From positions 47,039 to 111,038 of the forward strand of contig MHOW01000006.1 in the NCBI GenBank assembly GCA_001820215.1: a stretch of DNA of 64,000 nucleotides, written 5' to 3'. A model generated the notes under the pieces. It was not told the origin of the DNA and ran no database searches. It worked only from the letters and a program-made list of their open reading frames with translations. This DNA comes from Candidatus Staskawiczbacteria bacterium RIFCSPLOWO2_01_FULL_33_13 (GTDB lineage Bacteria > Patescibacteriota > Minisyncoccia > Minisyncoccales > Staskawiczbacteraceae). Positions 19,435 to 53,895 of this stretch are shown here, one piece after another. Every line of letters begins with the position of its first letter. Position 1 is the first letter of the stretch. Position numbers and translations under genes: made by a program.

Positions 19435-19611
19435 TTTGAATTACGAAATGCTTTCTAGGCCTGCCTGCCGGCAAGCAGGCATTTTTTTCAAATTTGGAGG
19501 TGAAAATTTGATAGAATTATTTTACCTAGTAAACTAGGTAAAATAATTATTGCGAATTTTTAACCCAAATTTGGATAAAAGACCTGAAATATGCTTTTAT
19601 TGTGCATTTCG
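19435..19611. repeat. MITE family 1, long copy with nested GC hairpin
   Basis: Terminal repeats tttgaattacgaaatgc / gcatttcgtaattcaaag. Internal hairpin tacctagtaaactaggta. Extra GC hairpin gcctgcctgccggcaagcaggc followed by T7. Confidence 0.6.
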
Positions 19612-19637
19612 TAATTCAAAGCTATCGACAATATATT

Positions 19638-22371: not shown

Positions 22372-22389
22372 TTTTTGAAATTTTTAAAT

Positions 22390-22551
22390 TAGACCTAGTG
22401 CATAAAGGTCTTCTTAGTGAAATGGTTAGATTTCGAGCTGCACATTTGATAGAATTTTTAGTTTTACCCTATGGGTAAGACTAAAAATTATAGCGAATTT
22501 GTGGCCGAAATATAGCCGTTGCAGTAGAAAGACCTTTATGCGCTGGGTCTA
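22390..22551. repeat. MITE family 2 variant carrying a family-1 internal module
   Basis: Terminal repeats tagacctagtgcataaaggtc / gacctttatgcgctgggtcta. Internal tttgatagaatttttagttttaccctatgggtaagactaaaaattat is homologous to the family-1 core. Confidence 0.5.
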
Positions 22552-22718
22552 TTTAATAAAAATAATTATCTATGGGCTTACGCCCATAGTATTAAGCAGT
22601 AATTTTATATATCCTGATATAGTATAACTTCTGCGGCTGCAGAAATTACACTATAACAGGATGCTTTTCATCCCTTGTGCTTACGCGCGGGGAATTTCGG
22701 AGGAAAATTAAACCCTAA

Positions 22719-23288
22719 TCAAACTTTTCCTAAACTTTTTAAAGCAATTTTTATCCTTTCTTCCACATTTTTTATATTAGGGGGAACGCTTCTTAAAGCT
22801 TCTTGTGCCTGCTGGCTTGAAAAACCAAGTTGAGTTAAGGCACTTTCTGCATCATCTTTTGGTTTTTTAGATTTCAAACTACTAAGCATTTTAATTTTCC
22901 CTGTGAGTTCTAAAATAATCGTCATCGCTTTTTTTGCGCCAATTCCAGGAATACCTTCAAATATTTTTTCATCTTGGGACAAAATCCTGTCTTTTATTTT
23001 TTCTAATGAACCAAGCGCCGCAATATCTAAAGCGGATTTAGGCCCAACGCCCCTAATATCCATTAATAATTCAAAAAAATCAAGCTCATCATAAGTTAAA
23101 AAGCCATACAGATCTGATGCCTCTTCTTTGACATTGTGAAAACAAAATAGTTTGATATTGTCTGTTTTTTCTGCTACTTTTAATAAAGTTTGGCTGGATA
23201 AAAAAACCTTATAGCCGATTCCGCCCACTTGAACAATAACAAACTTATCTTTTTTTAAAATAATATTGCCTTCTAAATAGCTTATCAT
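22719..23288 (-). CDS. ruvA: Holliday junction branch migration protein RuvA
   Basis: N-terminus MISYLEGNI...VGGIGYKV. HhH region GIGAKKA. Confidence 0.85.
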   Translation of the reverse strand: MISYLEGNIILKKDKFVIVQVGGIGYKVFLSSQTLLKVAEKTDNIKLFCFHNVKEEASDLYGFLTYDELDFFELLMDIRGVGPKSALDIAALGSLEKIKDRILSQDEKIFEGIPGIGAKKAMTIILELTGKIKMLSSLKSKKPKDDAESALTQLGFSSQQAQEALRSVPPNIKNVEERIKIALKSLGKV

Positions 23289-23302
23289 TACTACATAATA
23301 AC

Positions 23303-23470
23303 CTTAAATTACAAAATGCTCAAATAAAAACGAGTTTCTGGTCTTTTATTCAAATTTTAGTCGAAAACTCGCAATAATTATTTTATGTAGTAAACTACAT
23401 AAAATAATTCTATCAAATTTTCAATATAAAATTTGAAAAAAATACCTAGAAAGCATTTTGTAATTCAAGG
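23303..23470. repeat. MITE family 1 copy, opposite orientation
   Basis: Terminal repeats cttaaattacaaaatgc / gcattttgtaattcaagg. Internal modules are the reverse complement of those in copies 19435 and 46602. Confidence 0.6.
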
Positions 23471-23477
23471 TAATAGC

Positions 23478-25445
23478 ATGAAATTCCAACTAATATCCAA
23501 ATTTACGCCTAAAGGCGACCAGCCGCAGGCAATTAAAAAACTGACCGAAAACTTAAAATCTGGCAAAAATCACCAGGTTCTTTTAGGTGTTACGGGTTCT
23601 GGTAAAACATTTACTATGGCTTCTGTAATTGAAAAATGCCAAAAACCAACGCTAATCATTTCGCCAAATAAAACACTTGCGGCCCAACTTTACCAAGAAT
23701 TTAAAGAATTTTTTCCCAATAATGCGGTTCATTATTTTGTTTCTTACTATGATTATTACCAGCCCGAAGCCTATATTCCCCAAACAAACACTTATATAGA
23801 AAAAGATGCAAAAATAAACCAAGAAATAGACCGACTAAGGCATTCTGCGGTGCAAGATATTGTTTCGCGCAAAGATGTAATTGTGATAGCTTCAGTATCT
23901 TGCATTTATAACATTGGATCTCCTGTAAATTACCAATCAGTTTCGCTAATCATAAAAGCAAAACAGAAAATAAAACGCAAAGATTTTATTTTGCATCTTA
24001 TTGCATTGCAATACAAAAGAAATGATATTGAGGCAAAACCAGGATCATTCCGTGTGCGTGGGGATACTATTGAAATATATCTTGTAACAGGAGAAAAAAT
24101 ATTAAAAGTAGAATTTTCTAACAATGGCATAGAAAAAATCCTTGAATCTCCTGCCGGCGTAAATACCAAATACCAAATACTTAATACTAAATACACAATC
24201 TTCCCCGCCACATTCTGGGTAGCTCCAGAGAGTAAGATAAATATTGCGCTTGAAAATATCAAATTAGAATTACAGGAAAGATTAAAAGTGTTAAAAAAAC
24301 AAAATAAATTAGTTGAATATCAAAGATTAGAAGAAAAAACAAACTACGACTTAGAAATGTTGAAAGAAAATAATTGGTGCCAAGGCATAGAAAATTATTC
24401 AAGCCAGTTAGAATTTAGAAAACCAGGCTCGGCTCCCTTTTCACTTGTTGATTATTTTAACCATTTTAACCCTTCGGCAAGCTCAGGGCAGGTTCCCTCT
24501 GATTTTTTAATATTCATTGATGAATCACACATTTCTATTCCCCAAATAAGAGCAATGGCAATTGGAGACAAAATAAGAAAAGAAACGCTGATTAATTACG
24601 GATTTAGGCTTCCGTCTGCTCTAGATAATCGCCCATTAAAATTTCAAGAGTTTCAAGAACGCCAAAAACAAACAGTATATGTTTCGGCAACTCCGGCTGA
24701 CTACGAAAAAGAAAAATCGAGTAGTGACATTGTAGAACAATTAGTAAGGCCTACGGGATTGTTAGAACCATCAATAAAAATTAAAAAAACTGAAAACCAA
24801 ATAAAAGATTTAATAGAAGAGATAAAAAAAGAAGTTGCAAAAAACCATAGAGTTTTGGTAGTAACCTTAACAAAAAGATTGGCAGAAGAAATTTCAGACT
24901 ACTTAGCCGATAAAGAAATTAAAGCTCAATATATGCATTCCGAAATAAAAACAATGGAGCGACCAGAAATTTTAAAAAATTTCAGAGAAGGAAAGTTTGA
25001 TGTGTTAGTAGGAATTAACCTTTTAAGAGAGGGTTTAGACTTGCCCGAAGTAGCCCTAGTTGCTATTTTAGATGCTGATAAAGAGGGTTTTTTAAGAAAT
25101 AAAACAACTTTAATACAAGCTATGGGTAGAGCCGCCCGGCACATACAGGGGCGCATTATTTTATACGCCGATAAAACCACTTTCTCAATGCAAGAAGCCA
25201 TAGATGAAATTAATAGAAGAAGAAAAATACAAGAAAATTACAATAAAAAACACGGCATTACCCCCACGGCAATTATAAAAAATATTAAAAACTGGAGCCT
25301 GTCAAAAAAAGAAGATACTCTTTCTGAATTTTGGATGATCAATGATAAAAAATTACTAGAAAAAGAAATGAAACTTGCCGCCAAAAATATGGATTTTGAA
25401 AGAGCCGCAGAACTTCGTGATTTAATTGAAAAATTAAAAAAATAA
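23478..25445 (+). CDS. uvrB: excinuclease ABC subunit B
   Basis: FTPKGDQPQAI...GVTGSGKT helicase motifs. C-terminal UVR domain (ERAAELRD). Start moved to MKFQLIS because the ORF-track start lies inside the MITE. Confidence 0.9.
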   Translation: MKFQLISKFTPKGDQPQAIKKLTENLKSGKNHQVLLGVTGSGKTFTMASVIEKCQKPTLIISPNKTLAAQLYQEFKEFFPNNAVHYFVSYYDYYQPEAYIPQTNTYIEKDAKINQEIDRLRHSAVQDIVSRKDVIVIASVSCIYNIGSPVNYQSVSLIIKAKQKIKRKDFILHLIALQYKRNDIEAKPGSFRVRGDTIEIYLVTGEKILKVEFSNNGIEKILESPAGVNTKYQILNTKYTIFPATFWVAPESKINIALENIKLELQERLKVLKKQNKLVEYQRLEEKTNYDLEMLKENNWCQGIENYSSQLEFRKPGSAPFSLVDYFNHFNPSASSGQVPSDFLIFIDESHISIPQIRAMAIGDKIRKETLINYGFRLPSALDNRPLKFQEFQERQKQTVYVSATPADYEKEKSSSDIVEQLVRPTGLLEPSIKIKKTENQIKDLIEEIKKEVAKNHRVLVVTLTKRLAEEISDYLADKEIKAQYMHSEIKTMERPEILKNFREGKFDVLVGINLLREGLDLPEVALVAILDADKEGFLRNKTTLIQAMGRAARHIQGRIILYADKTTFSMQEAIDEINRRRKIQENYNKKHGITPTAIIKNIKNWSLSKKEDTLSEFWMINDKKLLEKEMKLAAKNMDFERAAELRDLIEKLKK

Positions 25446-25462
25446 ATTTAATTTATATACAC

Positions 25463-25490
25463 CAAAAAAACAGCCCGCGGGCTGTTTTTT
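25463..25490. terminator. Rho-independent terminator (bidirectional)
   Basis: aaaaaaacagcccgcgggctgtttttt. GC stem flanked by A- and T-runs. Confidence 0.7.
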
Positions 25491-25500
25491 GATGTATAAC

Positions 25501-25725
25501 TTATCTATGTTTTTCAATGTTTGCTATATTGTGCTTAACTTTTATTATTTCATCACTGATTTTTTCAAATTCTTCTTGTTGCTCTTTACTGCGATGCATA
25601 AGAAATAAAAGTTTTTTATATCTTTCTTCTTTTTCTTTCAATTTTTTTATTTCATCCTTTAATACTTCTTCTAAATTTAAAACTGGCATTTCTTGGGTTT
25701 TTTCTGAATCAAAATTTTCTTCCAT
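25501..25725 (-). CDS. hypothetical small coiled-coil protein
   Basis: 74 aa, charged, K/E heptads. Last gene of the 28780->25501 minus-strand operon. Confidence 0.3.
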   Translation of the reverse strand: MEENFDSEKTQEMPVLNLEEVLKDEIKKLKEKEERYKKLLFLMHRSKEQQEEFEKISDEIIKVKHNIANIEKHR

Positions 25726-25750
25726 ATTTTTATGTATTGTGTATAAATTT

Positions 25751-28123
25751 CTATTTTGGTATTTTTACTCTGCGTTTTTTAACTGGTTTTTCTGCTGCCC
25801 TTAATTCATCTCCCCCCAACCAAATTAAGGGGTTTTTATTTTTGGAAGCATGCTCTTTAGAACTCTTCCAAGCACCCGACCAAAATCCTTTAGTAGCTAC
25901 TTTTTTTATCTCTTGGCGCGCTTTTTCATTTTCATATTCTATATTCAATGCAACTTTTTTAACTGTATACCAACTCCCTTTTGCGAAACCCGAAATCTTA
26001 CCCCAAACTCCTTTTGGCGGATTATCTTTTTGTTCTTTTTTATATTCTTCAATTCTCTCAAGTTCAGATTCTATCCCATACAACACCTCATTTTCTTGAT
26101 GTGTATCTACTATTATCTTTTGCTTCTCAATTTTGGCTTTTTGTTTTCTTTTAGCGTATCTGTCTTCATCAATTTTAATTTGCCTTTTTATGAAAGCTCC
26201 CTTTTCTTTGTCCGACATTTTGTTATATTCTTCCTCGGTTATCCCCATAAAAATTTGCATTAACATTTCATCTGTAATTTCAACACCAATCTCATCTTCG
26301 TCCTCTTCATTTTTTAATTTTTTAGGCGCCGTCTTTTTTGCATGTTTATCTTTTACTTTTTCTAATTTTTCTAATAGAAAATCATGCATTTCTTTTTTCA
26401 ATTCTTCAGGCAATCCCCATGCTTTATATGTCGACTCAAATGAATCCTCAAAAGCATTTTTAATTTCCATCCATTCTATGCCCTGATTTAAAGCATCTTT
26501 TGTATCATCTCTTGCAAACTCTATAGCTTGATTGATTGTTTTTGCTATCTCTTCGGATTTGGCTTTAGAAAGGTTATTTGATTTTAAATGCCAACCTGTA
26601 TTCTCATCTCTTTCTAACCATACTTTTGCTGGTTTTAATTCTTTTTTTTCTAAATCGTCTTTTTTTCTTGATGGTGATACCGATTCTGGTTCTACTAAAT
26701 CAGTTTTTGTATCACCCTCACCACTTTCTTTAATTTCCCTTATTTTTGATCTCACTCCCGTTGTCATTGCTGTCACTTTTTTAAATCTTTCTTGATCTTT
26801 TTCTTCACGACGCCGTATCATCATAAGCCTCATAGATTCTCCATCTAAATTTTTCAATATAATTTGCAATTCTTCTACAGTATCTGCATTTTCTATATCT
26901 TCTTTGGTAATTAGTTTTGTTCTTAAGACCTCAATTAACTCTGATTTTGTAGAGTCTATTTTATCTTGTGATACTGACTCATCCATTACTTGTGGCACTA
27001 CTAATTCTGTTTCTGAGGCATCTTTAGAATCGGGCTTTTTCTTGTCTACTTTGTCACCCGAAGGCTCTGTTAATTCTAATAATGGCCTCTCTTTAGTTTT
27101 TCTGGCGTAACCAACTACCCCATCATCATCTACATATTCAACTATCTTACTCCTTAATAATGTTGAAACTGGTTTATTATCAATTTTACCTTTAAAATAA
27201 AAATGGCTATCTATTTTATCAGAATCTCTTGAAACCTTACACTCAATAAATTCCCCATTTTCTCTAAACATAGCAAGACTTTCACCACGCAAAGAATCAC
27301 CATTACCAACTTCTTCATCTGGTTCAACTTCCTCATAATTTCGATATTTTATTGTCTCAATTCTTTGTGGTATTACTTTTTGTTTTCCATCTTTATTATA
27401 AACAAAGGATCCGTCTAAATTAAAGACTGCAAAATTCAATAATTGCTCTCCCATATTATCAGCCCCTATCTTTATTTTTTTATCTTTTTCAACAACAAGC
27501 TGTAAATATTGCTGTTTCCCAGCTTTAGAAAAATAGTAAACTTTCCTGCCCTGCAATTGCTCAAGAAGTTTTTTAGTTCTTTCTTGCCAATCTTTTTTAG
27601 TTTCCTCTTCTCCATTCTCCCGTACTTGTCTTTTTAAAGCATCTAAAAGACTCTTCTTCCCAGGTTTTGGTGATTTTTCTCCTGATTCTATTTCGGGTTT
27701 GGAATCTAAAACTGTTTCAGTGGGCATCTCGGGATGGGTTGTTGATTCTAACTTTTCTCTTCTCTTTAAATCTTCTAAACCCTGTCTCGCTGCATCAATA
27801 GTAGCTTCAGTTCGTTGTTTTTCTTTATCTGCTTCAATTAATCTTTTTAAAATTTTAACTTTTTCCTTTTTTGATTGTCCTGACATCTCAAGTAGTATTG
27901 CACCGACTTCATCAAATCTCTTTATTTCATTGGCGCTAAAATCAACCCTGTTGTGTGTATCTAAATACTCTTGGTTAATTCCCTTTAGGGCAACTATCAT
28001 TTCTTCTATTGTTAATTCTTTGGGTTTTCCAAAGTATCTCAAAATACCTAAAATACTTGTAATATTTTCTGGCTCCTGGTCTAGATATATCTCTGTTATT
28101 TTTGGTTCTTCTCCCCCTCTCAT
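25751..28123 (-). CDS. hypothetical large acidic protein (790 aa), no recognisable domain
   Basis: Long open frame. Very Lys/Glu/Asp-rich. Repeated ITxEDIxNAxTxEEL-type motif shared with the upstream 161-aa ORF. Basic C-terminus KKRRVKIPK. Confidence 0.4.
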   Translation of the reverse strand: MRGGEEPKITEIYLDQEPENITSILGILRYFGKPKELTIEEMIVALKGINQEYLDTHNRVDFSANEIKRFDEVGAILLEMSGQSKKEKVKILKRLIEADKEKQRTEATIDAARQGLEDLKRREKLESTTHPEMPTETVLDSKPEIESGEKSPKPGKKSLLDALKRQVRENGEEETKKDWQERTKKLLEQLQGRKVYYFSKAGKQQYLQLVVEKDKKIKIGADNMGEQLLNFAVFNLDGSFVYNKDGKQKVIPQRIETIKYRNYEEVEPDEEVGNGDSLRGESLAMFRENGEFIECKVSRDSDKIDSHFYFKGKIDNKPVSTLLRSKIVEYVDDDGVVGYARKTKERPLLELTEPSGDKVDKKKPDSKDASETELVVPQVMDESVSQDKIDSTKSELIEVLRTKLITKEDIENADTVEELQIILKNLDGESMRLMMIRRREEKDQERFKKVTAMTTGVRSKIREIKESGEGDTKTDLVEPESVSPSRKKDDLEKKELKPAKVWLERDENTGWHLKSNNLSKAKSEEIAKTINQAIEFARDDTKDALNQGIEWMEIKNAFEDSFESTYKAWGLPEELKKEMHDFLLEKLEKVKDKHAKKTAPKKLKNEEDEDEIGVEITDEMLMQIFMGITEEEYNKMSDKEKGAFIKRQIKIDEDRYAKRKQKAKIEKQKIIVDTHQENEVLYGIESELERIEEYKKEQKDNPPKGVWGKISGFAKGSWYTVKKVALNIEYENEKARQEIKKVATKGFWSGAWKSSKEHASKNKNPLIWLGGDELRAAEKPVKKRRVKIPK

Positions 28124-28189
28124 ATTAGTTTAAAATTTAATGATAATTTTCTATTTATCCTAACCAAACCTATTATTTATTTTTTATAA

Positions 28190-28292
28190 TAGACCCCCTG
28201 CGTAAAGATTTTTCTAGCTCAAAACATTCCTTGATCAGCAGAGCATCCCGAAGGCTGATTTTCGTAACGAAAACCTTTACGCGGTAGGTCTA
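28190..28292. repeat. MITE family 2 copy
   Basis: Terminal repeats tagaccccctgcgtaaag / ctttacgcggtaggtcta. Internal hairpin tcagcagagcatcccgaaggctga. Confidence 0.6.
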
Positions 28293-28294
28293 AC

Positions 28295-28780
28295 CTAGTT
28301 TTTTTCCGTTTCTTTTCTTTTAATTTCATCTATCTTTCCAAAAGCCATCTTTTCTATTTTTACAGATTCGTTAAGCCTTTTTTCTTGAGTCTCACTGGCT
28401 ATACCATTGCCAATAGTTTGATAAATTGCCTCAACCTCCCTCCTTAATAAATCAATCATTTTTTCAAGCTCTTCTATTGTAGTGGCGTTTTTTATATCAT
28501 TTTCTGTAATTTGATTATGTTCCTTCAATTCCAAATTTATTTTATCACTTATTTTTTTTGCTATTTTCTGCCCGATAATTATCATTTCTCCAATTTCCTT
28601 AAGCCTATCTTCTTTTTGCTGGCTTTCGCCAAGATTCTTAATGAGTGCATTCATTTCTAATTGTAGTATTTCAAACATTCTATCAATTTCTTTTATAGTT
28701 TTAGCTTTACCCAAATCTTCTATGGTAATTAGTTTTTCTGACCCTGGCCAAGACTCTGATTCTCTTATTATGTCTATCAT
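28295..28780 (-). CDS. hypothetical coiled-coil protein paralogous to a domain of the 790-aa ORF
   Basis: EKLITIEDLGKAKTIKEIDRMFEIL and ITENDIKNATTIEELEKMIDLL repeat motifs. Confidence 0.4.
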   Translation of the reverse strand: MIDIIRESESWPGSEKLITIEDLGKAKTIKEIDRMFEILQLEMNALIKNLGESQQKEDRLKEIGEMIIIGQKIAKKISDKINLELKEHNQITENDIKNATTIEELEKMIDLLRREVEAIYQTIGNGIASETQEKRLNESVKIEKMAFGKIDEIKRKETEKN

Positions 28781-28915
28781 ATAATTTAAAAATTACTTTA
28801 AACTACAAAATACTTTTAATGTTCGTTAGTAATTTAGAACGAGTGAATAAAATTAAGAAATACACCAACTTAACTATTTCTTAATTATAACATATATAAA
28901 TATAATGTCAAGTCC

Positions 28916-28944
28916 TTGCAAAACCAACAATCATTTGCTATATT
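28916..28944 (+). promoter_or_regulatory. sigma70-like promoter candidate for rpsT
   Basis: TTGCAA, 17-nt spacer, TATATT, about 80 nt upstream of the rpsT start. Confidence 0.35.
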
Positions 28945-29024
28945 TTATCATATTATTGTAAACTGTTAAACAAGTATTAGTCGTTATATTCTCTGTCTAG
29001 CCCCTAAACATTGTACCCAATAAA

Positions 29025-29285
29025 ATGGCAATCATAAAATCAGCTAAAAAAGCTATCAGACAAAATAAAAAAAATAGGATTCACAATCTTATTTATATCA
29101 ACAAAATAAAAAGCCTTGTAAAAGAAACTAAGTCTTTAGTTTTACAAAAGAAAAATAAAGAGGCAAAAGAGCTGTTGCCTAAAGTATATGAGGCTTTAGA
29201 TAAAGCAGCAAAGATTGGAGTTATTAAAAAAAATAATGCTTCAAGAAGGAAGTCTCGAATGGCTAAAGCCATAGGGCGACTCTAA
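29025..29285 (+). CDS. rpsT: 30S ribosomal protein S20
   Basis: MAIIKSAKKAIRQNKKNR... Basic, 86 aa, typical S20. Confidence 0.85.
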   Translation: MAIIKSAKKAIRQNKKNRIHNLIYINKIKSLVKETKSLVLQKKNKEAKELLPKVYEALDKAAKIGVIKKNNASRRKSRMAKAIGRL

Positions 29286-29324
29286 TTTATAAATCACACA
29301 CTAATATACTAATTAAAAGAGTTA

Positions 29325-29723
29325 TTAATCTAAATTAATAACTCTTTTTGGTTTTAAATAGGTGCTACGAAAATTGACTATTAAACCAAGATGTAATTTC
29401 GAAAATTTTAAATATCTTATCATTTGAAAATAATCTTCTTTTGTAATAAATTTTTTAGACTTTATATCAAGTAAAATCTTATCGTCAATACAAAAATCTA
29501 CTTTATTGCTTGCATCTTTTTTGTTAATAATTTCAATTGGTAATATTTTTTCTCTTTCAAAAAAAATATTAGCCTTTTTCAATTCTATTTCTAAAAGATC
29601 TCCGTATTGGATTTCTCTACAAAACCTACCTAACTTATTATGAACCTTAAATAAAACTCCAGAAATCTTATAAGATAGTTCCGGATGGATTAGTTCGATT
29701 TTATTAGTAAATTCGTGTGTCAT
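29325..29723 (-). CDS. GxxExxY family protein (PD-(D/E)xK-like fold)
   Basis: Pattern ...YGDLLEIELKK...IDDKILLDIKSKK...GLIVNF matches the GxxExxY family layout. Confidence 0.55.
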   Translation of the reverse strand: MTHEFTNKIELIHPELSYKISGVLFKVHNKLGRFCREIQYGDLLEIELKKANIFFEREKILPIEIINKKDASNKVDFCIDDKILLDIKSKKFITKEDYFQMIRYLKFSKLHLGLIVNFRSTYLKPKRVINLD

Positions 29724-29740
29724 TAGTAAATTGGTGTCGC

Positions 29741-30742
29741 CTAGATTTCTGATACCAGTAAATCCAGCGCTGTTTCCATTTCTATTTTTCCTGTTTTAAT
29801 ATCTAAGTCAGTTTGGTATATTTTTTTATATATTTTTTTTAATTCTTCGAATGAAAATTGATTGCATGTAAAATAATTCTTTTTGACTACAAAAGGGTGC
29901 AAACCACTTTTTTTTACAATAGAGGCATACATTAACCCCTGTTCTGATAACTCTTTTATTACAAGTAAATTTTTAAATTGATAAGCTATCATTGAAAAAA
30001 GATACAATGGATTATCTCCTCCATCAATGTGCTTATGCAATAAAGAAAGTGCCTGCGGTTTATTTTTTTGAGCTAAAGAATCAATGGTTTTAAAAATATC
30101 GGTTTCAATTTTTGGCTTTGTCAACAAAACCACATCTTCTTTTTTTACCACAAGCCCATTTTTAAAATTTGATAATTTTTTGATTTCACCTGAAAGCCTC
30201 CAAAGATCGTTGCCAACATATGACAAAAGCAAATCTAAGGCATCAACATTTACCCGATTAAATTGTCTCGCATCGCGAGACACCGTTTCGCTTTGCGAAA
30301 CGGATTTAACCGGGTGAATTTTTGTCTTATATTTTTCAAATTCTTTTACTGCCCACAACTTTACATTTTTATTATCTAATAATCCAAACTCTTGGCTTTT
30401 ACATTCTTTTATTAACACCTTAAATATTTTTAATCTTTGATCAACCGTTTCTGATTCGTACACCACAATAATATCCTTTAATGCCTGTAATTTTTTTATT
30501 TCACCCAAAAAGTTTTCTTGAAATTTTTTATTTGAAAAAACATTTTTTAAAATAATAAGCTTTGTTTCTCCAAACATTGAAGAAATAGTAAAATTGCCAT
30601 GAAATTCTAAAAAGTCGGCTTGGTTGGCATCCATATAAACCAAATTCAATCCGCTTTTGCGGATTTTTTTATAATGGTCAACTATTTCATCTAATTTCTC
30701 TTTTGACCTATATGAATCTTCACCATATAAAAATATAATCAT
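29741..30742 (-). CDS. holA: DNA polymerase III delta subunit
   Basis: N-terminus MIIFLYGEDSY is typical of HolA. Start trimmed from the ORF-track 30841 to the third Met. Contains a 39-bp GC-rich double hairpin in frame. Confidence 0.6.
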   Translation of the reverse strand: MIIFLYGEDSYRSKEKLDEIVDHYKKIRKSGLNLVYMDANQADFLEFHGNFTISSMFGETKLIILKNVFSNKKFQENFLGEIKKLQALKDIIVVYESETVDQRLKIFKVLIKECKSQEFGLLDNKNVKLWAVKEFEKYKTKIHPVKSVSQSETVSRDARQFNRVNVDALDLLLSYVGNDLWRLSGEIKKLSNFKNGLVVKKEDVVLLTKPKIETDIFKTIDSLAQKNKPQALSLLHKHIDGGDNPLYLFSMIAYQFKNLLVIKELSEQGLMYASIVKKSGLHPFVVKKNYFTCNQFSFEELKKIYKKIYQTDLDIKTGKIEMETALDLLVSEI

Positions 30743-30810
30743 AATGTAATTCGTTTTCATTAATTTCCAATTCATTAATTTCCAACTGAAAAACCAACAA
30801 CAAGATCCGA

Positions 30811-30829
30811 CGACGCCCGACGTCGTTCT
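30811..30829. repeat. REP-like palindrome (copy 1)
   Basis: gacgacgcccgacgtcgtt, immediately downstream of the RAYT gene. Confidence 0.6.
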
Positions 30830-30849
30830 TAATAAGCACATTGTCTATT

Positions 30850-31614
30850 TTATTCAAGCAAAACATCGCCATATAAAGATGGATCTTTTTTGTACGAAAC
30901 CCATTCTGTCATATTATTTATTATGCCTTTTTCTTTACCCATAAATTCTGTTACGAAAATCCTCTCTGTTACAGAGGGGAAATTTTTAATACCTACATAA
31001 TCCGGAAAACTTGACCACCGATGACCTGTTTTCAAAAAATTAACAACTTCTTCAATCGAATGTTTTTTAATTCCCTGCTCTTTAAAATTTGGCTCGATTA
31101 AGGAAATGGGATTAGCGTGAATATAATTAATCACCATCATTAATTGATTATCGTCTTTAATAATTACAGAGCGAAACCTGTTTTGAAAAACATACCCCTT
31201 GCGCTGATGCTTTTGATTAAAATATCTTCCATATCCACTTCCTAATTTTACCATAAAATCATGTAATCCATTTTCGGTAATTTGCTTTAATAATAAATGG
31301 ATATGGTTAGGCATAAAACAAAATGCTAAAATATCAACCAATTTTTCCCTTATATCTATTTCGAGTTTTTCTATCTCTTCCAACAAATCAACCGACGACG
31401 CCCGACGTCGTCTTATTTGTAATGATATTTTTTCTTTTTGACGCTGTTCTCTGCGCTTCATTATACTTACTGGATTAGAATTATTAAATTCATATATAGA
31501 AAAAATTCCACGGTAAAAATCATCCTTATTTTTAAATATAATATTATTATCTATACCTCTTAAAATAATGTGATAAATATCACCATTAATAAATTCTTCT
31601 TTTCTGTATGGCAT
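30850..31614 (-). CDS. REP-associated tyrosine transposase / IS200-like Y1 transposase
   Basis: HUH motif (MPNHIHLLL) and catalytic Tyr (NYIHANP). About 250 aa. Flanked by inverted GC-rich REP palindromes. Confidence 0.7.
   Translation of the reverse strand: MPYRKEEFINGDIYHIILRGIDNNIIFKNKDDFYRGIFSIYEFNNSNPVSIMKRREQRQKEKISLQIRRRRASSVDLLEEIEKLEIDIREKLVDILAFCFMPNHIHLLLKQITENGLHDFMVKLGSGYGRYFNQKHQRKGYVFQNRFRSVIIKDDNQLMMVINYIHANPISLIEPNFKEQGIKKHSIEEVVNFLKTGHRWSSFPDYVGIKNFPSVTERIFVTEFMGKEKGIINNMTEWVSYKKDPSLYGDVLLE
31391..31409. repeat. REP-like palindrome (copy 2, in-frame inside the RAYT gene)
   Basis: gacgacgcccgacgtcgtc encodes RRRRASSV on the minus strand. Confidence 0.6.
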
Positions 31615-31624
31615 AATTAAGTCG

Positions 31625-31670
31625 ACGTCGGGCGTCGTCTTCGTCGTCTTCCGTCGTCTTCTTTGTCTAT
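31625..31670. repeat. REP-like palindrome (copy 3, inverted) plus 3x cgtcgtctt tandem
   Basis: gacgtcgggcgtcgtc is the reverse complement of copies 1 and 2, followed by ttcgtcgtcttccgtcgtctt. Confidence 0.6.
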
Positions 31671-32638
31671 TTTAATTGTTTTTTTGGTTTAAAATACAAT
31701 GGATCACTTAATATAGTTTTATATTTTACTGGCAAAACTATTCTTGGAATTTTCACATCACTACCTCCTTTGCGACCCATTGTAACAGGAGGCATATCTT
31801 TACCTTTTCGTAAATTATTAATAAAATCTAATTTTCGTGAATAAAGTTTTTCTGGATTCGTTAATGCGACCACCGCGCTTTCGCAAAGATCTTCTCGTGG
31901 ATCAACTTCTCGGGCATACTTAGAAACACATATTTCTGGCATAGTGGTTTCGTATAATGTAGAATCGCCACCGTCAAGGTTTCTAGACACATCTGTAAAT
32001 CTCCAGCCAAATTTTTTTGACCAATTAGCTATAACCAAATCCACTGCACCTTCAACTTTATGAAAAAATTCATGAATAAGGGTTCCCAAAAAATTTGATA
32101 CTCCCTGAAAATTTGGATTTTTTTCTTCTGACCTATAATCATTGTTTAAATCTGTTCCTTTTGGATAAATTCTAACCACATCATCATTGTACTGAACATG
32201 CCCCCTCATTTCTTCGCCAGTATTTTTATTTATTGGTTTTTTATCATCAATAAGTATATATTTTACCCTTCTTAGCGGCTCACCCTCTACTGTAGACAAA
32301 AGTTCTACTGCTCTTTTTAATTCTTCTAAATGTTGCCGCTGTAATTGTTCATTAAAGTTATACAAAGAAATTTCATGCTCTCCAATCTTTATATCAATTT
32401 GTTCTTTTGGCAAACCCTTTTCCTGCCAATATTTTTGTAACCACCAATTTTGTTGAATTAATTTTTCTCTAACAAACTTTTCTATATCAATCTGCAATGT
32501 TTTTGACGAAAAAATTACTGCCTCAAAAGCATCGCCATATCCAGGTTCTCCCTTAAAAACTTCTGTAAGACCTATGTCCTTGGCAGATTGATATTCTGGA
32601 TTTATTCCTTGATTTGGATCTTTTTCAAAACCTTCCAT
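31667..32638 (-). CDS. hypothetical protein with HExxH metallopeptidase-like motif
   Basis: LIHEFFHKVEG. No signal peptide seen. Confidence 0.35.
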   Translation of the reverse strand: MEGFEKDPNQGINPEYQSAKDIGLTEVFKGEPGYGDAFEAVIFSSKTLQIDIEKFVREKLIQQNWWLQKYWQEKGLPKEQIDIKIGEHEISLYNFNEQLQRQHLEELKRAVELLSTVEGEPLRRVKYILIDDKKPINKNTGEEMRGHVQYNDDVVRIYPKGTDLNNDYRSEEKNPNFQGVSNFLGTLIHEFFHKVEGAVDLVIANWSKKFGWRFTDVSRNLDGGDSTLYETTMPEICVSKYAREVDPREDLCESAVVALTNPEKLYSRKLDFINNLRKGKDMPPVTMGRKGGSDVKIPRIVLPVKYKTILSDPLYFKPKKQLK

Positions 32639-32664
32639 AGTAATTTAAAATTTAATCTACACAA

Positions 32665-32853
32665 TAGACCTACTGCGTAAAGATTTTTCTGGTGCAAATT
32701 GAATCTTTTGGCTATAAATTACCAAAATCTTCGTGGCTTATCCAGAGGATAAGCCTTGTCAATTTTTGAAATTTCTAGATCAAAACATTCCTTGATCAGC
32801 AGAGCATCCCGAAGGCTGATTTTCGTAACGAAAACCTTTACGCAGTAGGTCTA
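32665..32853. repeat. MITE family 2 copy with nested insert
   Basis: Perfect 18-bp terminal repeats tagacctactgcgtaaag / ctttacgcagtaggtcta. Same core as 28190 plus an about 90-bp insert containing hairpin ggcttatccagaggataagcc. Confidence 0.65.
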
Positions 32854-32861
32854 ATATATTT

Positions 32862-38615: not shown

Positions 38616-38757
38616 TAAAAAAATAGCTCTGGAGTTGGAGGTGTCATTATATCTGGGATATAAGTAAGAGTTTGTCCGAGGAGTAGTTGAGCCGGAGCAA
38701 AACTATCCAAACTAAGACAAATTCATATAAAACCTCCAACTCAAGAGCTATTTTTTG
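38616..38757. repeat. inverted-repeat element with 25-bp terminal repeats
   Basis: aaaaaatagctctggagttggaggt / acctccaactcaagagctatttttt with 1 mismatch. Confidence 0.5.
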
Positions 38758-38809
38758 TATAAATAGTAAAAATTAATCGATACATCAATTATATCACCTA
38801 ACAATATAT

Positions 38810-42742: not shown

Positions 42743-42923
42743 CTTAAATTACGAAATGATTTTTAGTTATTTATTAGGGAATTTTGTTTCTGGTGAAGGA
42801 AAAATATAAAAAGGTAACTACGCTTACCTTTTTACATTTTTACAAAGCCAGAGACAAAATTAACAATAAATAGCAAAAACTTGCATTTTCTATGGTCATT
42901 TCGTAATTTAAGGTATTATGCAT
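42743..42923. repeat. MITE family 1 copy (divergent interior)
   Basis: Terminal repeats cttaaattacgaaatga / tcatttcgtaatttaagg. Confidence 0.5.
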
Positions 42924-46380: not shown

Positions 46381-46776
46381 AATAATATATAATATATTAA
46401 ATATCTTATTGTTATTAGGGTAGTGATTTTTGTTAATTTTTAAATTTTTATTATATTGTCGTATGTGTAAATTTTTAAAAAATAAACTGTGAATAAAATA
46501 GTCTAAAAATATATTAATAAAATATGTGAATTATTTTTATAATTTTTTATAGATAGTTTGTTATGTGTTTTATCCACCATATATTCTATTTTTTTAATTA
46601 CTTTGAATTACGAAATGCTTTCTAGGTATTTTTTTCAAATTTTAGAATGAAAATTTGATAGAATTATTTTACCTAGTAAGCTAGGTAAAATAATTATAGC
46701 GGGTTTTCAACTAAAATTTGGAGAAAAGACCAGAAATTTGCTTTCCAAAGGGCATTTCGTAATTCAAAGTAATATT
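46381..46776. other. oriC-like AT-rich region with DnaA-box-like 9-mers
   Basis: Very AT-rich stretch 46381-46560. ttatccacc at 46570-46578 and ttatccact at 46777-46785. MITE copy embedded. Confidence 0.4.
46602..46769. repeat. MITE family 1 copy
   Basis: Terminal repeats tttgaattacgaaatgc / gcatttcgtaattcaaag. Internal hairpin tacctagtaagctaggta. Lacks the GC hairpin of copy 19435. Confidence 0.6.
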
Positions 46777-48132
46777 TTATCCACTATACACTTTTTGTTT
46801 TATAAGGTTTAATTCTTCTGTTAATTTATTATTTTCTTCACTTTCTTGTAGTATTTTTTTGTATGCGTATATGACTGTAGTATGATCCTTGCCCCCAAAT
46901 TTTCTTGCAATTGCAGGAAATGAATATTTTAATTCTTTTCTTAATAAAAACATTGCTATTTGTCTTGGTCTTACAATTTCTTTGCGTCTTGTTTGGTCAA
47001 AAAGATTTTTTTCATCTAAATTATAAAATTTAGCAACCGTTTCAATTATTTTTTTATAGTTTGCAACATCAAAGGGAGAAAATACAAAACCTCGTAATAG
47101 CTTTTTTGCAACTTCTAAATTCAACACATTGTTGTTGATTTTATGGTAAATTAATAAGCTATTTAAGGCTCCCTCTAAATCTCTGATATTCTTTTTAACA
47201 TTTGAGGCGATGTATTCTAAAATATCTTCTGGTAATTCCATATTTTTCTCTTGAAGTTTGGTTTTAAGTATTACAAGCCTTGTTTCATAATCAGGTAGGC
47301 TTACATCAATAGTCATCCCGCCTCCAAATCTTGATTTAAGCCTTTCTTCTAACTCTGATATGGCATTGGGGGGCCTGTCAGACGAAAGGATGATTTGTTT
47401 ATTTTTTTCATATAAAGAATTAAACACATGAAAAAATTCTTCTTGGCTTTTGTTTTTTCCCGATATAAATTGTATATCATCAATAATGAGCACATCTATA
47501 GGGGTAAAACTAGCCTTAAAGCTTTCCATGCTATTGCTCCTAATAGCTGAAACAATATTAGAAACAAGTTTTTCAGAAGGAATATATTTTACTTTATTTT
47601 TTTTATTATTACTGGCTATTTTATTCCCAATTGACTGCATTAAATGGGTTTTGCCTAATCCAACTCCTCCATATATAAATAAGGGGTTGTAGGTGTGTCC
47701 TGGGTTTTCAGATACTGCTAAAGCTGCCGCGTGAGCCAATTCATTAAATCCACCTACTACAAAATTTTCAAAGGTATAACGAGGGTTAAGATTTGTTTCT
47801 TTGTTAATTTTAAACTCATCAAATTTTAACTGTTCTATATTTATATCACTTTCTAGTTTTTCTTTTGTTTCAAAGTTTTTTGATGGTTGTGGGTTAATTT
47901 TAAATTCTAATTCTTTGATAGTGTTGTCTATGTCATGCATTGTTTTAAGTATTAACTTGTAATACTTATTATTCAGCCACTCTTTAGAAAAGGCATTTGG
48001 AACCGAAATTACTATTTTTCCATTTTCTTTAGATGTTATTTCAGTGTTTTGAAACCAGGTTGCAAAATTTGCCTTAGAAATAAAAAGTTGCATTTGCGCC
48101 AAAACTGATTGCCAAAGCTCACTATTGTCCAT
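46777..48132 (-). CDS. dnaA: chromosomal replication initiator DnaA
   Basis: AAA+ Walker A GGVGLGKTHL. C-terminal DnaA-box-binding domain. Confidence 0.9.
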   Translation of the reverse strand: MDNSELWQSVLAQMQLFISKANFATWFQNTEITSKENGKIVISVPNAFSKEWLNNKYYKLILKTMHDIDNTIKELEFKINPQPSKNFETKEKLESDINIEQLKFDEFKINKETNLNPRYTFENFVVGGFNELAHAAALAVSENPGHTYNPLFIYGGVGLGKTHLMQSIGNKIASNNKKNKVKYIPSEKLVSNIVSAIRSNSMESFKASFTPIDVLIIDDIQFISGKNKSQEEFFHVFNSLYEKNKQIILSSDRPPNAISELEERLKSRFGGGMTIDVSLPDYETRLVILKTKLQEKNMELPEDILEYIASNVKKNIRDLEGALNSLLIYHKINNNVLNLEVAKKLLRGFVFSPFDVANYKKIIETVAKFYNLDEKNLFDQTRRKEIVRPRQIAMFLLRKELKYSFPAIARKFGGKDHTTVIYAYKKILQESEENNKLTEELNLIKQKVYSG

Positions 48133-48222
48133 AATTTTTTGATTAAATATTTAATAGTCTATTTTTTCTTTTTGTTGTTTATTTGTCAAATATAAACAAA
48201 ATATACACATATGTTATTAAGT

Positions 48223-48231
48223 TGTGGATAA
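48223..48231 (-). promoter_or_regulatory. perfect DnaA box (TTATCCACA on the minus strand)
   Basis: tgtggataa, 90 bp upstream of dnaA. Confidence 0.45.
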
Positions 48232-48440
48232 ATTGTGTGATATTTTAAATACAGACGCACAATATATTTAATTAGAAATTTTAAATTTGTAATTAAAACG
48301 CTATTTGACCAAATGTGTTTTTTTTGGTAAGTTAACAATATTATCCTTGAGTTATAAAATACTTTCACAGTCTTTTTATAGAGTATTTGGTGATTTAAGG
48401 ATTTATACTACACTATACAATATTATTAATATAAAAAACA

Positions 48441-48575
48441 ATGAGTTTCACTTATAACCCAAAAAAGAAAAAGAGAAAAAGAACACACGGTTTCTTAAAG
48501 AGAAGCCAAACAAAAAAGGGTCAACAGGTTATTCAAAGGAGAAGGGCTAAGGGAAGGAAGAAATTAAGCGTGTAA
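48441..48575 (+). CDS. rpmH: 50S ribosomal protein L34
   Basis: [44 protein letters not shown] (44 aa). Not in the ORF track because it is under 60 aa. Canonical position before rnpA. Confidence 0.8.
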
Positions 48576-48638
48576 TGAGCTGGTTACAAAACTCCATATT
48601 TATCCTCAAAAGCGAGTTTTGTAACCATCTCAACTTAA

Positions 48639-48980
48639 GTGTTGCCAAAAATAAACAGGTTAACCAAAAAAAAAGATTTTGACTCGGTTTTTAAGAAAGG
48701 AAAAAGCATAAAAGTTGATTTTTTAATATTTAAAATATTAAAAAATGATCTAAAAGAAAGCCGTTTCGGTTTTGTGGTTAGTAAAACTATTTCTAAAAAA
48801 GCTGTTATAAGAAATAAAGTTAAAAGAAGGCTGCGAGAGGCAGTTTTTAAAGGATTAAAAAATCAGGTTACTAATACGGCTAAACCATCAGATATTGTTA
48901 TTATAACTTTGCCAGGAATTGAGAAAAGAGAATTTTTGCAACTACAAGAAGTTGTCGATAAATTTTTAAATAAAATATAA
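48639..48980 (+). CDS. rnpA: ribonuclease P protein component
   Basis: LPKINRLTKKKDFDSVF. Basic, 113 aa. Position rpmH-rnpA-yidC. Confidence 0.75.
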   Translation: MLPKINRLTKKKDFDSVFKKGKSIKVDFLIFKILKNDLKESRFGFVVSKTISKKAVIRNKVKRRLREAVFKGLKNQVTNTAKPSDIVIITLPGIEKREFLQLQEVVDKFLNKI

Positions 48981-48994
48981 TAATTTTTTACACT

Positions 48995-49723
48995 ATGTTT
49001 GGTTTTTTAGTAGATGTCTTTAATATTCTTTTATACCAGCCTCTTTTTAATGCATTGGTGTTAATTTATAATTATCTGCCTGGGCATGATTTTGGTATTG
49101 CAATTATCCTTCTTACAATCATTATAAGAGTTATTATTTATCCCCTTTCGGTAAAATCCCTTAACTCACAAAAAAATCTTCAAAAACTGCAACCACAATT
49201 ACAGGAAATACAAAAAAAATATAAAAATGATAAAGAAAAACAAGCTAGGGAAACCCTAGAACTTTATCGTAAAGAAAAAATAAATCCATTTAGCGGATTG
49301 TTTTTAGCATTGATTCAGCTCCCTATTTTAATTGCATTATATAGTGTGTTTAATAATGGATTAAAATCTATAGAGCTTAATAATTTGTATAGTTTTGTAT
49401 CAAATCCAGTTAATATTAACCCAATATTCTTGGGTGCTATAAATTTATCTTTGCCAAATTTATTTTTTGCCTTCCTTGCGGGTATTGTTCAATTTTTTCA
49501 AACAAAAATGATTATGCCTAAATTGGATAAAAATCAGGCAAAAGAAAATCAAATGACCGCCATGATGCAAAAACAAATGGTTTATTTTTTTCCTTTTATA
49601 ACAGTAATAATCCTTTTAAAATTACCCTCAGCTTTAGGCCTTTACTGGATTGCAAGCGGATTGTTTTCTATAGCACAACAGTATTTTATTCTTAAAGATA
49701 AACCAAATAAGCCTTCTTTGTAA
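48995..49723 (+). CDS. yidC: membrane protein insertase YidC (short form)
   Basis: Five-TM Oxa1-like core. IIIRVIIYPL motif region. Confidence 0.8.
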   Translation: MFGFLVDVFNILLYQPLFNALVLIYNYLPGHDFGIAIILLTIIIRVIIYPLSVKSLNSQKNLQKLQPQLQEIQKKYKNDKEKQARETLELYRKEKINPFSGLFLALIQLPILIALYSVFNNGLKSIELNNLYSFVSNPVNINPIFLGAINLSLPNLFFAFLAGIVQFFQTKMIMPKLDKNQAKENQMTAMMQKQMVYFFPFITVIILLKLPSALGLYWIASGLFSIAQQYFILKDKPNKPSL

Positions 49724-52030: not shown

Positions 52031-53824
52031 TTATTTTAATTTTCTTCTTGCTTCTTTTATTTTTTCAACTTCTTGGGGGCTGGTAGTTATTATTTGATCT
52101 TCTGTATAGCTGGCTTTTATATTAATATATACATGTTTTTTACCCGCAAAAAACAACCCTTCTCCAACAGGAGCACTTAATAATAATTCTTCTTCTTGCT
52201 TGGTTAAATCAAATATTTTTTCTAATACATCAATAGCCGCAGTGGATTGTTTTAACAGCATTTGCAAAGATGAATTGGTGATAATAGCCTTTCCATAACC
52301 TGAACCCATAAAATCTTCCACATCTTGGGTAATAGTGGTTACTCCCATCCAGTATTTTCTGCATCTTTTTATTAAGCTGAATAAAAATGAAGCTCCGTCT
52401 TCTGATTGCATCAGCCACCAAGCCTCATCAACCACTAAAATTCTCTTTTTTATTTTTGTTCTTACAATATTCCATATGTATCGCATTACAATAAACAAAG
52501 CAATGGGTTTTAAAGATTCTTCCATGTCTCTTATTCCAAATACAATGAATTTTTTATCAATAGTAATATTAGATTTTTGGTTAAAAAATCCAGCAAAAGT
52601 CCCTTCGGTAAATTTTTTAAGGCGTCTTGCTAAAGATTCTGCTCCTTCCATATTTTCTAAAATTTCTCCAAAATCAGACATTAGTGGTATTTTTTCCTCC
52701 CAGGTAGCAGGGTCACTTTGAGGTGTAATATCTCTTATTGCGTAAGTTTCTGTGAGGGCTTGGTCTAAAATACTATCTTCTTCAGCAGTTAATCCTCCAA
52801 GCATTATTCTTAAAAGTCCCACCAAATTTATAATATTTGACCTTAGTATGTCTTCTGGATTATCATCTGGGCCTGGGGTAGGAAGGTCAAAAGGATTTAC
52901 ATGGTTTCCAGAAGACAAAGATATTTTAAAGAAATTACCCCCTATGCCATCGGCTAAAAATTCATATTCATTTTCGGGGTCAATTACAATTACATCAATA
53001 TCCATCATCAAGTATCTTAAAATTTCTAATTTAACCGCGTATGATTTACCCGATCCGGATTTTGCAAAAACAACCATATTGGCGTTTTCTAAGGTGAACC
53101 TATCAAACAATACAAGTGAATTATTGTGCCGGTTAATGCCATATAAAATTCCTTCATTAGAGCTTAAGTCAAAAGAAACAAATGGAAACGCAGTTGAAAG
53201 CGGCTCTGTGTTCATTGGAACATTAATGCCAATTAAGTCCATTCCATAAGGGCTGGCTGAAATAAAGCCTTCTTTTTGCTTAAATAAAGCTGGTTTTATA
53301 TAAATTAAACGAGGTTCAAAAATTGACCTTAGGGTAGTTTCAACTTCACGCATTTCTTCTTCTGAATTTTGATATACGGTAATATAAAGCCCAAATCTAA
53401 ACATTTTTTCTTGGGCGGTTATTATTTTATCTCTAAGGTTTTCAATATCTTGGTAGCCGGTTTCAAGAGCTGGATCGCGAATGAGTCCCTTTTCTTGTCT
53501 TTCCATTAATTCTGAAGATACTTGGGTAACTTTTGACCGTAATTTTTTTAAAATTAATTCACTGCTTACCGGATGTATAAAAAAAGATATATCCATTGGT
53601 ACATTTAGGTTTATTGCGGGAGAAAGCCAGCCGGTATTTAAATATCTTGGATAAGAAAATATAAAAAAAGATTTGGCGATTTTTTCTCCAAGCTTTATAT
53701 AGTTTTGATTTATGCCAACATAAGAAGGCGCTATAACATCCTTTATATTAAGAATTTCTTCTTGAAATATTTTATCATCAATATCAATATTTCTTTTATT
53801 TTTATTTAAAAAATTAAAATTCAC
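52031..53824 (-). CDS. VirB4/TrbE/CagE-family conjugal-transfer-type ATPase
   Basis: Walker A FAKSGSGKSYA. DPENEY and VVDEAW (Walker B) motifs. Confidence 0.8.
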   Translation of the reverse strand: MNFNFLNKNKRNIDIDDKIFQEEILNIKDVIAPSYVGINQNYIKLGEKIAKSFFIFSYPRYLNTGWLSPAINLNVPMDISFFIHPVSSELILKKLRSKVTQVSSELMERQEKGLIRDPALETGYQDIENLRDKIITAQEKMFRFGLYITVYQNSEEEMREVETTLRSIFEPRLIYIKPALFKQKEGFISASPYGMDLIGINVPMNTEPLSTAFPFVSFDLSSNEGILYGINRHNNSLVLFDRFTLENANMVVFAKSGSGKSYAVKLEILRYLMMDIDVIVIDPENEYEFLADGIGGNFFKISLSSGNHVNPFDLPTPGPDDNPEDILRSNIINLVGLLRIMLGGLTAEEDSILDQALTETYAIRDITPQSDPATWEEKIPLMSDFGEILENMEGAESLARRLKKFTEGTFAGFFNQKSNITIDKKFIVFGIRDMEESLKPIALFIVMRYIWNIVRTKIKKRILVVDEAWWLMQSEDGASFLFSLIKRCRKYWMGVTTITQDVEDFMGSGYGKAIITNSSLQMLLKQSTAAIDVLEKIFDLTKQEEELLLSAPVGEGLFFAGKKHVYINIKASYTEDQIITTSPQEVEKIKEARRKLK

Positions 53825-53860
53825 TTTAGTATTTTTTTAATATTATTAAAAAATTAATTT

Positions 53861-53895
53861 CAAAATTCAAAAACCTAAATTCTAAACAAATTCAA
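53861..53895. repeat. left arm of 34-bp inverted repeat bracketing the four-helix-bundle ORF
   Basis: caaaattcaaaaacctaaattctaaacaaattcaa. Confidence 0.65.

Follow-up and report, generated by a model that had tools for sequence, protein, structure and literature searches.

A palindromic repeat family that duplicates an A-N-T target in genomes of the Candidate Phyla Radiation is probably a miniature inverted-repeat transposable element

The Correia (NEMIS) elements of Neisseria are non-coding intergenic hairpins of 100 to 160 bp with terminal inverted repeats (TIRs) of about 26 bp; they are present in tens to hundreds of copies, and their length variants differ by an internal deletion of about 50 bp. 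The enterobacterial repetitive intergenic consensus (ERIC) or intergenic repeat unit (IRU) sequences of the Enterobacteriaceae are imperfect palindromes of about 127 bp, conserved across genera, with larger variants that carry insertions at fixed sites. We know of no resident transposase for Correia elements and of no transposase for ERIC/IRU. The insertion sequence IS5 of Escherichia coli itself generates a 4-bp target duplication. For bacterial IS5 transposons and eukaryotic Pangu elements, a common 5'-ANT-3' target has been described (PMC4482050). Here, we analyze a 64-kb stretch of DNA (the window; G+C content of about 32%) from Candidatus Staskawiczbacteria bacterium RIFCSPLOWO2_01_FULL_33_13, a member of the Candidate Phyla Radiation (CPR), that carries three copies (A, B, and C) of a palindromic repeat, referred to as family 2. 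We consider it highly probable that these copies are those of a non-autonomous DNA transposon, that is, a miniature inverted-repeat transposable element (MITE).

Copy A (28190-28292, minus strand, 103 bp), copy B (32665-32853, minus strand, 189 bp), and copy C (22390-22551, plus strand, 162 bp) had been picked out by an earlier, sequence-only reading of the window, and inspection of the sequence bore out all three. The TIR that bounds the family is TAGACCTACTGCGTAAAG(A/G)TTTTCG. Allowing up to three mismatches, the 18-mer TAGACCTACTGCGTAAAG has six matches in the window, compared to 0.03 expected by chance, and five of these are arms of copies A, B, and C, the right arm of copy C being too diverged to be matched at this threshold. 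The sixth match, at 16709, lies inside an open reading frame (ORF) without a partner arm and was dismissed as chance. The 18-bp terminal repeats of A and B had been called perfect or near-perfect, and this held: the two arms are identical at 18 of 18 positions in B and differ at 3 in A, while those of copy C are divergent, with differences that are compensated by G.T pairs. The ends had been placed one base too far out. The outermost bases, T and A, are part of a 3-bp target duplication and not of the element, so that the true ends are AGACC...GGTCT, and the inverted repeat is about 25 nt long. The element proper opens with AGACCTACTGCGTAAAG(A/G)TTTTCG and closes with its reverse complement (family ends, AGACCTACTGCG...CGCAGTAGGTCT); it occupies 28191-28291 in copy A and 32666-32852 in copy B. 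A covariance model built from 20 family members scored copy A at 62.3 bits on the minus strand and copy C at 144 bits on the plus strand and found no further family-2 copy in the window.

The target-site duplication (TSD) was examined in 51 oriented flanks first and then in 121 non-redundant insertions. The base at position -1 is identical to that at +1 in 102 of the 121 insertions (37% expected; p = 2.9e-26) and complementary to it in 7. A stands at position -2 in 104 insertions and T at position +2 in 103, and positions ±3 and ±4 show no identity relation. The flanks thus read A-N-[T…A]-N-T. The full 3-bp flanks are identical in 89 of the 121 insertions, with ATT (34), AAT (31), ACT (5), and AGT (5) as the most common sequences. 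The only reading that fits is that a 3-bp A-N-T target is duplicated on both sides of an element proper AGACC...GGTCT, so that the duplication takes in the initial T of 'TAGACC' and the final A of 'GGTCTA'. A TA duplication of the Tc1/IS630/Correia type leaves the identity of the -1 and +1 bases unexplained, and flanks that formed part of the palindrome would be predicted to have complementary middle bases, the relation found in only 7 of the 121. In the window, copy B lies between AAT (32663-32665) and AAT (32853-32855), copy C lies between ATT (22388-22390) and ATT (22551-22553), and copy A lies between AAT (28188-28190) and AAC (28292-28294), with one mismatch. A duplication of fixed length points to staggered cutting by a DDE-type transposase.

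The distribution of the family is that of an element that has multiplied within individual genomes. A degenerate TIR pattern retrieved 65 loci from contigs representing one genome per species (L numbers are used below for individual loci and contigs). About 55 of them, with paired arms, come from about 17 CPR genomes assigned to Sungbacteria/Sungiibacteriota, Staskawiczbacteria, Jorgensenbacteria, Moranbacteria, unclassified Parcubacteria, and some metagenome-assembled genomes (MAGs) labeled Saccharibacteria; the nearest repeat-bearing genomes are Candidatus Staskawiczbacteria MAGs. The arms in CPR genomes occur as inverted pairs 53 to 250 bp apart, and the roughly nine non-CPR matches, all of them single arms with no partner, are about as many as chance would produce. 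In metagenomes, the exact 18-mer was found at at least 120 loci, including at least 83 paired elements, mostly of 161 to 167 bp, and all metagenome loci among the matches listed come from aquifer-type samples; viral contigs gave 0 matches to the element. At least 20 loci are present in JACOYX01 and at least 13 in MHQM01. Copies from the same genome are on average 93% identical in MHQM01 and 91% identical in JACOYX01 (maximum, 98.8%), compared to 75% for copies from different genomes, indicating that each genome amplified its own subfamily. Truncated and solo-arm copies are also present, and the terminal ~25 bp are nearly identical across genomes that range from 31 to 52% G+C.

Six of the loci (L037, L046, L048, L070, L072, and L073) lie in MAGs labeled 'uncultured Candidatus Saccharibacteria' (CAZYED01, CAYHZE01, CAYJSA01, and CAYORD01), and these MAGs carry copies up to 97.5% identical to those of the Sungbacteria genome MHQM01. 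The label of the L073 MAG looks doubtful because the flanks of this locus are also 89% identical to Sungbacteria MHQM01.

Orthologous sites are occupied in some genomes and empty in others. In L061 (Sungbacteria), a copy lies just past a gene end at a site that is empty in L073; the flanks of the two are 89% identical, and homology is continuous up to ...AAACT and breaks at AGACC (AAACT|AGACC). The spacer between a T2SSE-type ATPase gene and ruvB contains a copy in L034 but is 46 bp long and has none in the window, and L186 carries one between rpmH and rnpA, a site at which a small hairpin of unrelated sequence is found in the window. Conversely, L076 and L077, two relatives, have no element at the sites that copies A, B, and C occupy in the window. 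All three copies are present in ten near-identical strain contigs (L001-L010), which are therefore uninformative on strain polymorphism.

The whole element is a long imperfect palindrome, non-coding and intergenic, in which hairpins are layered concentrically. From the outside inward, there is a shell of about 25 bp, then a conserved asymmetric junction (CGTARCGAAAT / AATTGCAGYAGAA), then inner stems that vary, and, at the apex, a hairpin. All subfamilies have in common the outer stem, the 5' junction TTTTCGTARCGAAAT, and the 3' junction AATTGCAGYAGAA, while the stems between the junctions vary by genome yet remain complementary. The elements are 53 to 470 bp long, with 161 bp the most frequent length, the arms are 18 to 25 bp long and perfect in many copies, and typical copies contain no ORF of 80 aa or more. 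The smallest form is a 53-bp hairpin with a perfect 25-bp stem, and a 74-bp form consists of this minimal hairpin plus the conserved asymmetric junction; forms longer than the common one of 161 bp gain extra hairpin modules.

Within this layered plan, copies A and B appear to be related by deletion. The sequence-only reading had described B as the core of A plus a 90-bp insert with its own hairpin. The hairpin was confirmed, but the length is 86 bp (32691-32776 on the plus strand, as placed by alignments of B with A and with L048), and the direction of change is more likely the opposite one. Outside this central part, A and B are 96% identical. The 86 bp hold the inner stems and an apical perfect 9-bp hairpin (GGCTTATCC-NNN-GGATAAGCC), and their edges fall in a short direct repeat, (C/T)AGAAA, consistent with A having lost them by a microhomology deletion. 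B aligns over its entire length with L048, a canonical element of 161 nt (90% identity), and comprises the full canonical architecture plus a 28-nt remnant of a GC-rich hairpin module, whereas A has the outer shell and this remnant without the central 86 bp. Because B matches the widespread 161-nt architecture and A does not have its central part, it is more likely that A arose from a B-like copy by deletion than that B arose from A by insertion. The core hairpin that the two copies had been said to have in common is indeed present in both: the 24-mer tcagcagagcatcccgaaggctga occurs exactly twice in the window, at 28235-28258 in A and at 32796-32819 in B (0 expected).

This core hairpin is an AT-decayed remnant of the GC-hairpin module (GAGACGGGGC...GCCTCGCGTCT) seen in the family-2 elements of other genomes. 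All 23 examples of the module (among them L013, L020, L061, L062, L073, and L146) lie inside family-2 elements at the fixed position ATTTCG^(nnn)CTACG; in about 1 Mb of DNA, no standalone example was found, and no duplication is evident around the module. In these respects, it behaves like a site-specific hairpin insertion.

A second repeat family in the window, family 1, has the TIR (T)A(A)C(C/T)TTGAATTACGAAATGC and occurs at 737-775, 19436-19619, 23304-23468, 42744-42911, 46603-46767, and 59615-59717; like family 2, it includes a minimal form, a 39-bp hairpin. The two families have the same inner module within different shells, since positions 36-126 of the family-2 covariance model match inside four family-1 copies at 30 to 41 bits. 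These are the elements at 19436-19619 (plus strand; TIR CTTTGAATTACGAAATGC; match at 19487-19575, 41 bits), at 46603-46767 (plus strand, abutting the 3' end of dnaA; match at 46599-46771, 36 bits), at 23304-23468 (minus strand, between ruvA and uvrB; match at 23328-23458, 30 bits), and, for a family-1-type element with the TIR TACCTTAAATTACGAAATG, at 42744-42911 (plus strand; match at 42780-42861, 32.7 bits). This last copy is flanked by ATT/ATT, which hints at the same A-N-T target for family 1, although copies are few and the flanks of the others are ambiguous. The proposals that the families share modules, that the divergent copy C carries a family-1 module, and that inserts are nested were thus upheld: the center of C resembles the family-1 center, and L083 has a complete family-1-type element (TIR TTGAATTACGAAATGC) within a family-2 shell, and the GC hairpin lies at its fixed site in 23 of 23 cases.

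These data show insertion with duplication at A-N-T, multiplication within genomes, decay by truncation and internal deletion, and the exchange or acquisition of inner modules. The elements have the small size, the TIRs, the fixed-length TSD, and the many dispersed copies of variable occupancy that define MITEs, and the MITE label used in the sequence-only reading is borne out by the A-N-T duplication, by the many copies per genome with genome-specific subfamilies, by truncated copies, and by presence or absence at individual sites. Under this reading, the elements would be moved by cut and paste by a DDE transposase supplied in trans, which would bind the two identical ends and make 3-bp staggered cuts at A-N-T, with fill-in of the gaps producing the duplication. 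The conservation of the terminal ~25 bp would reflect recognition by the transposase, and the inner layers could vary freely provided that they remained self-complementary. The A-N-T target would suggest an enzyme of the IS5 family (related to PIF, Harbinger, and Pangu).

Several observations weigh against this reading. An IS5-type DDE transposase acting in trans is the most likely mobilizer, but that attribution is drawn from the TSD alone. About 200 arms in 185 loci (1.1 Mb of DNA) yielded no autonomous copy, nor did the window, and no arm pair in these loci encloses a transposase; one pair 1,012 bp apart (L117) has a spurious left arm and secreted-protein genes inside, and the remaining arms that lack a partner belong to truncated or diverged copies or are chance 18-mers. 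No DDE transposase is present among the Pfam-assigned genes of the window (about 0.5-41.6 and 46.8-64 kb, with three ORFs at 41.1-46.4 kb outside this set), and a tblastn search of the fetched loci with E. coli IS5 InsH, a weak probe for distant subgroups, returned nothing. Compared with the IS5 end GGAAGGTGCGAAYAAG, the TIR is alike only in a short TGCG(A/T)A.AAG motif; likewise, IS5A ends (GGAAGGTGCGAA(T/C)AAG) resemble AGACCTACTGCGTAAAG only in the TGCG..AAG part. None of the comparisons of occupied and empty sites is base exact, as the relatives are 70 to 89% identical, and in the best pair, L061 and L073, the downstream flank carries extra changes. Finally, the hairpin complementarity and strand asymmetry go beyond what a simple TIR-only model predicts. 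RNA structure prediction gave a hairpin, with an RNAalifold consensus of 55 pairs, 34 of which show double compensatory changes, and the strand that carries the junction motif folds better in all 39 scored copies, in every subfamily, by a mean of 12.5 kcal/mol (for copy C, -90.8 kcal/mol on the plus strand versus -59.4 on the minus strand).

In a joint reading, which we regard as unlikely though the least so of the alternatives, the fold of the whole element would be selected, as the compensatory changes, the conserved asymmetric junction, and the common strand preference may indicate, and its layers would derive from several mobile hairpin systems that target each other's loops. The systems would be the A-N-T-duplicating shell, the family-1 shell, and the GC-rich hairpin that enters at ATTTCG^CTACG without a duplication, much like a site-specific insertion of the REP/Y1 type. 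If this were true, the family would be a CPR-wide, self-assembling 'Russian doll' of interacting mobile hairpins, possibly with a function as single-stranded RNA or DNA.

Somewhat less probable still, in our judgment, is that the repeat is primarily a structured or cis-acting RNA hairpin, such as a terminator, insulator, RNase III site, or small RNA, with mobility being secondary or the MITE having been domesticated. The compensatory changes, the junction motif conserved in all subfamilies, the consistently better folding of the strand that bears it, and the near identity of the terminal sequence from 31 to 52% G+C would all accord with such a role. However, covariation can also come from swaps of whole palindromic modules. 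With respect to co-directional flanking genes, the copies are oriented at random (25 same, 23 opposite; p = 0.89), showing no bias relative to transcription, and a naive arm-to-arm count of 216 G.T against 192 A.C shows no general wobble excess. The fold-energy asymmetry is real and is not explained by wobble pairs alone, but because there is no general G.T excess and orientation is random, we do not take it as evidence of an RNA role. Truncated copies, the size range of 53 to 470 bp, and deletions of any layer also speak against a constrained RNA. A scan of the three window copies for promoters and terminators gave no signal, with promoter-like matches at the level of shuffled sequence. In Rfam, the only match to reach the gathering score is a tRNA; the elements match no family, and the sub-threshold matches are to generic long-hairpin models of plant microRNA precursors.

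Between copies A and B lies a gene (30850-31614, minus strand) for a Y1 protein that resembles the REP-associated tyrosine transposases (RAYTs), where REP denotes repetitive extragenic palindromic sequences (Pfam Y1_Tnp, 2.6e-10; NCBIfam REP_Tyr_transpos, 50.7 bits). The elements could accordingly be REP doublets (REPINs) copied through single-stranded DNA by this enzyme, but we think this very improbable. The RAYT-like protein is identical on MHOQ01000017.1 (GCA_001820135.1) and on many contigs from Rifle and other groundwater; it is one member of an extensive CPR family, with at least 1,884 homologues, and since each homologue cluster is found on few contigs, the gene appears to be single copy, as expected of a RAYT under this explanation. 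The elements are moreover hairpins with CTAC/GTAG inside the arms, one strand of which folds better, and in L077 the RAYT-like gene has moved to the spacer between ruvA and a Mur ligase gene, the site that is occupied by copy C in the window. Against this, Y1/HUH transposition leaves no target duplication, and the 3-bp A-N-T duplication comes close to refuting the explanation. The NCBIfam score is under the curated cutoff of 80, and a tblastn search found no RAYT homologue within 4 kb of the 65 element loci. In addition, the gene is flanked in the window, in L076 (71% identity), and in L077 (64%) by a different, GC-rich REP hairpin, GACGTCGGGCGTC, and in L078 by yet another GC-rich REP. This is the classical RAYT arrangement, but the REP is unrelated to the MITE ends. 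The different REP, the TSD, and the absence of a RAYT near the 65 loci led us to reject the RAYT-like enzyme as the mobilizer and to regard its gene as a bystander.

The REP hairpin copies that flank the RAYT-like gene (GACGACGTCGGGCGTCGTC) are inverted, at 30808-30825 and 31623-31637, and a third full copy (31394-31412) lies inside the ORF about 200 nt from its start, where it encodes ..RRRRASSVD... The three positions are kept in L076 and L077, and the REP occurs nowhere else in the 64 kb. A second Y1 gene, in L006 (ANAN16-1...scaffold_11345), is irrelevant, as this scaffold is probably an assembly chimera past a terminator: from about 13780 it continues into unrelated sequence of higher G+C content with a truncated Y1 gene, and the switch falls exactly at a terminator hairpin that is also present in the window (25470-25495).

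We can dismiss almost entirely the idea, hinted at when A and B were said to bracket the segment 28190-32853, that the two copies delimit a 4.4-kb composite transposon carrying rpsT, holA, the RAYT-like gene, and their neighbors: the two related copies do flank it in the same canonical orientation, and the genes just inside each copy, encoding proteins of 323 and 161 aa, are missing from L076, but L076 (fpg-RAYT-holA-(PD-(D/E)XK)-rpsT) and L077 (fpg-holA-PD-(D/E)XK-rpsT) keep the core gene order without MITEs, B and A are flanked by separate TSDs (AAT/AAT and AAT/AAC, respectively) with no common outer duplication, and the segment is identical in all ten strain variants. The genes that had been named there and nearby (rpsT, the GxxExxY/PD-(D/E)XK protein, holA, Y1_Tnp, fpg, and ruvA) were recognized by family; the 161-aa and 323-aa proteins have no family match, and their genes, beside the MITEs, are the only lineage-specific ones.

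Other features of the window lie apart from the repeats discussed above. A replication-origin-type neighborhood at 46777-49723 contains dnaA (46777-48132, minus strand), rpmH (48441, plus strand), rnpA, yidC, and an R3H/jag-like gene. A type IV secretion or conjugation-like module, either a remnant or still functional, is suggested by the genes at 52031-55024, whose products are a TraG/VirB4-like P-loop ATPase (597 aa), a TraC-like protein (220 aa), and a 23S_rRNA_IVP four-helix protein (120 aa). A non-coding block at ~38620-38760 (aaaaatagctctggagttggaggtgtcattatatctggg...; about 130 nt), which separates ruvB from the T2SSE-type ATPase gene, is conserved in L034 and L076, where it forms a long hairpin; it did not reach the gathering score of any Rfam family and may be an undescribed CPR small RNA.

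CPR (Patescibacteria) genomes are about 1 Mb in size and are usually called streamlined and poor in mobile DNA, yet this MITE reaches tens of copies in them. Its near-identical ends across several candidate phyla and a 20-point range of G+C content imply a transposase that is active or was so recently, and the family has probably spread horizontally between CPR lineages. Because many contigs from metagenomes stop within the element (of the 49 unpaired arms, about 30 are within ~150 nt of a contig end; L079-L198), it is also a recurrent cause of fragmentation of CPR MAGs. The A-N-T duplication and the conserved 25-bp end together offer a marker of strain-level insertion polymorphism and a handle on the transposase, and the family is now separated from the adjacent RAYT-like gene, which has its own REP. 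The kind of element is ordinary, but in the literature that we searched, we met with neither the TIR sequence nor an account of this family or of any MITE or REPIN in CPR genomes.

Among known systems, the family is like IS5/PIF/Harbinger/Pangu transposons and Tourist-like MITEs in its 3-bp duplication of an AT-rich trinucleotide, A-N-T (PMC4482050). With the MITEs of the IS5 family, it shares short TIRs, hairpin-folding non-autonomous derivatives, and a high copy number relative to the parent. It differs in that the whole element, and not the ends alone, is palindromic and layered and in that no transposase-bearing parent with these ends was found; the short TIR motif alone is common. REP/REPIN-RAYT systems of Gammaproteobacteria are similar in their palindromic, genome-specific intergenic repeats and in a single-copy Y1 gene with flanking hairpins, but REPINs make no target duplication and their own REP flanks the RAYT, whereas here there is a TSD and the REP at the RAYT-like gene is unrelated. 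Correia elements are comparable in hairpin size, TIRs, internal-deletion variants, copy number, and lack of coding capacity; they duplicate TA and are confined to one genus, in contrast to the A-N-T duplication of the CPR family, and their promoter, integration host factor (IHF)-binding, and RNase III features have been shown by experiment, whereas the CPR family is known from sequence. Finally, the palindrome, the conservation across genera, and the fixed internal insertion sites recall ERIC/IRU, but ERIC sequences lie in transcribed regions and have no consistent TSD described, whereas the CPR family has a clear TSD and a random orientation.

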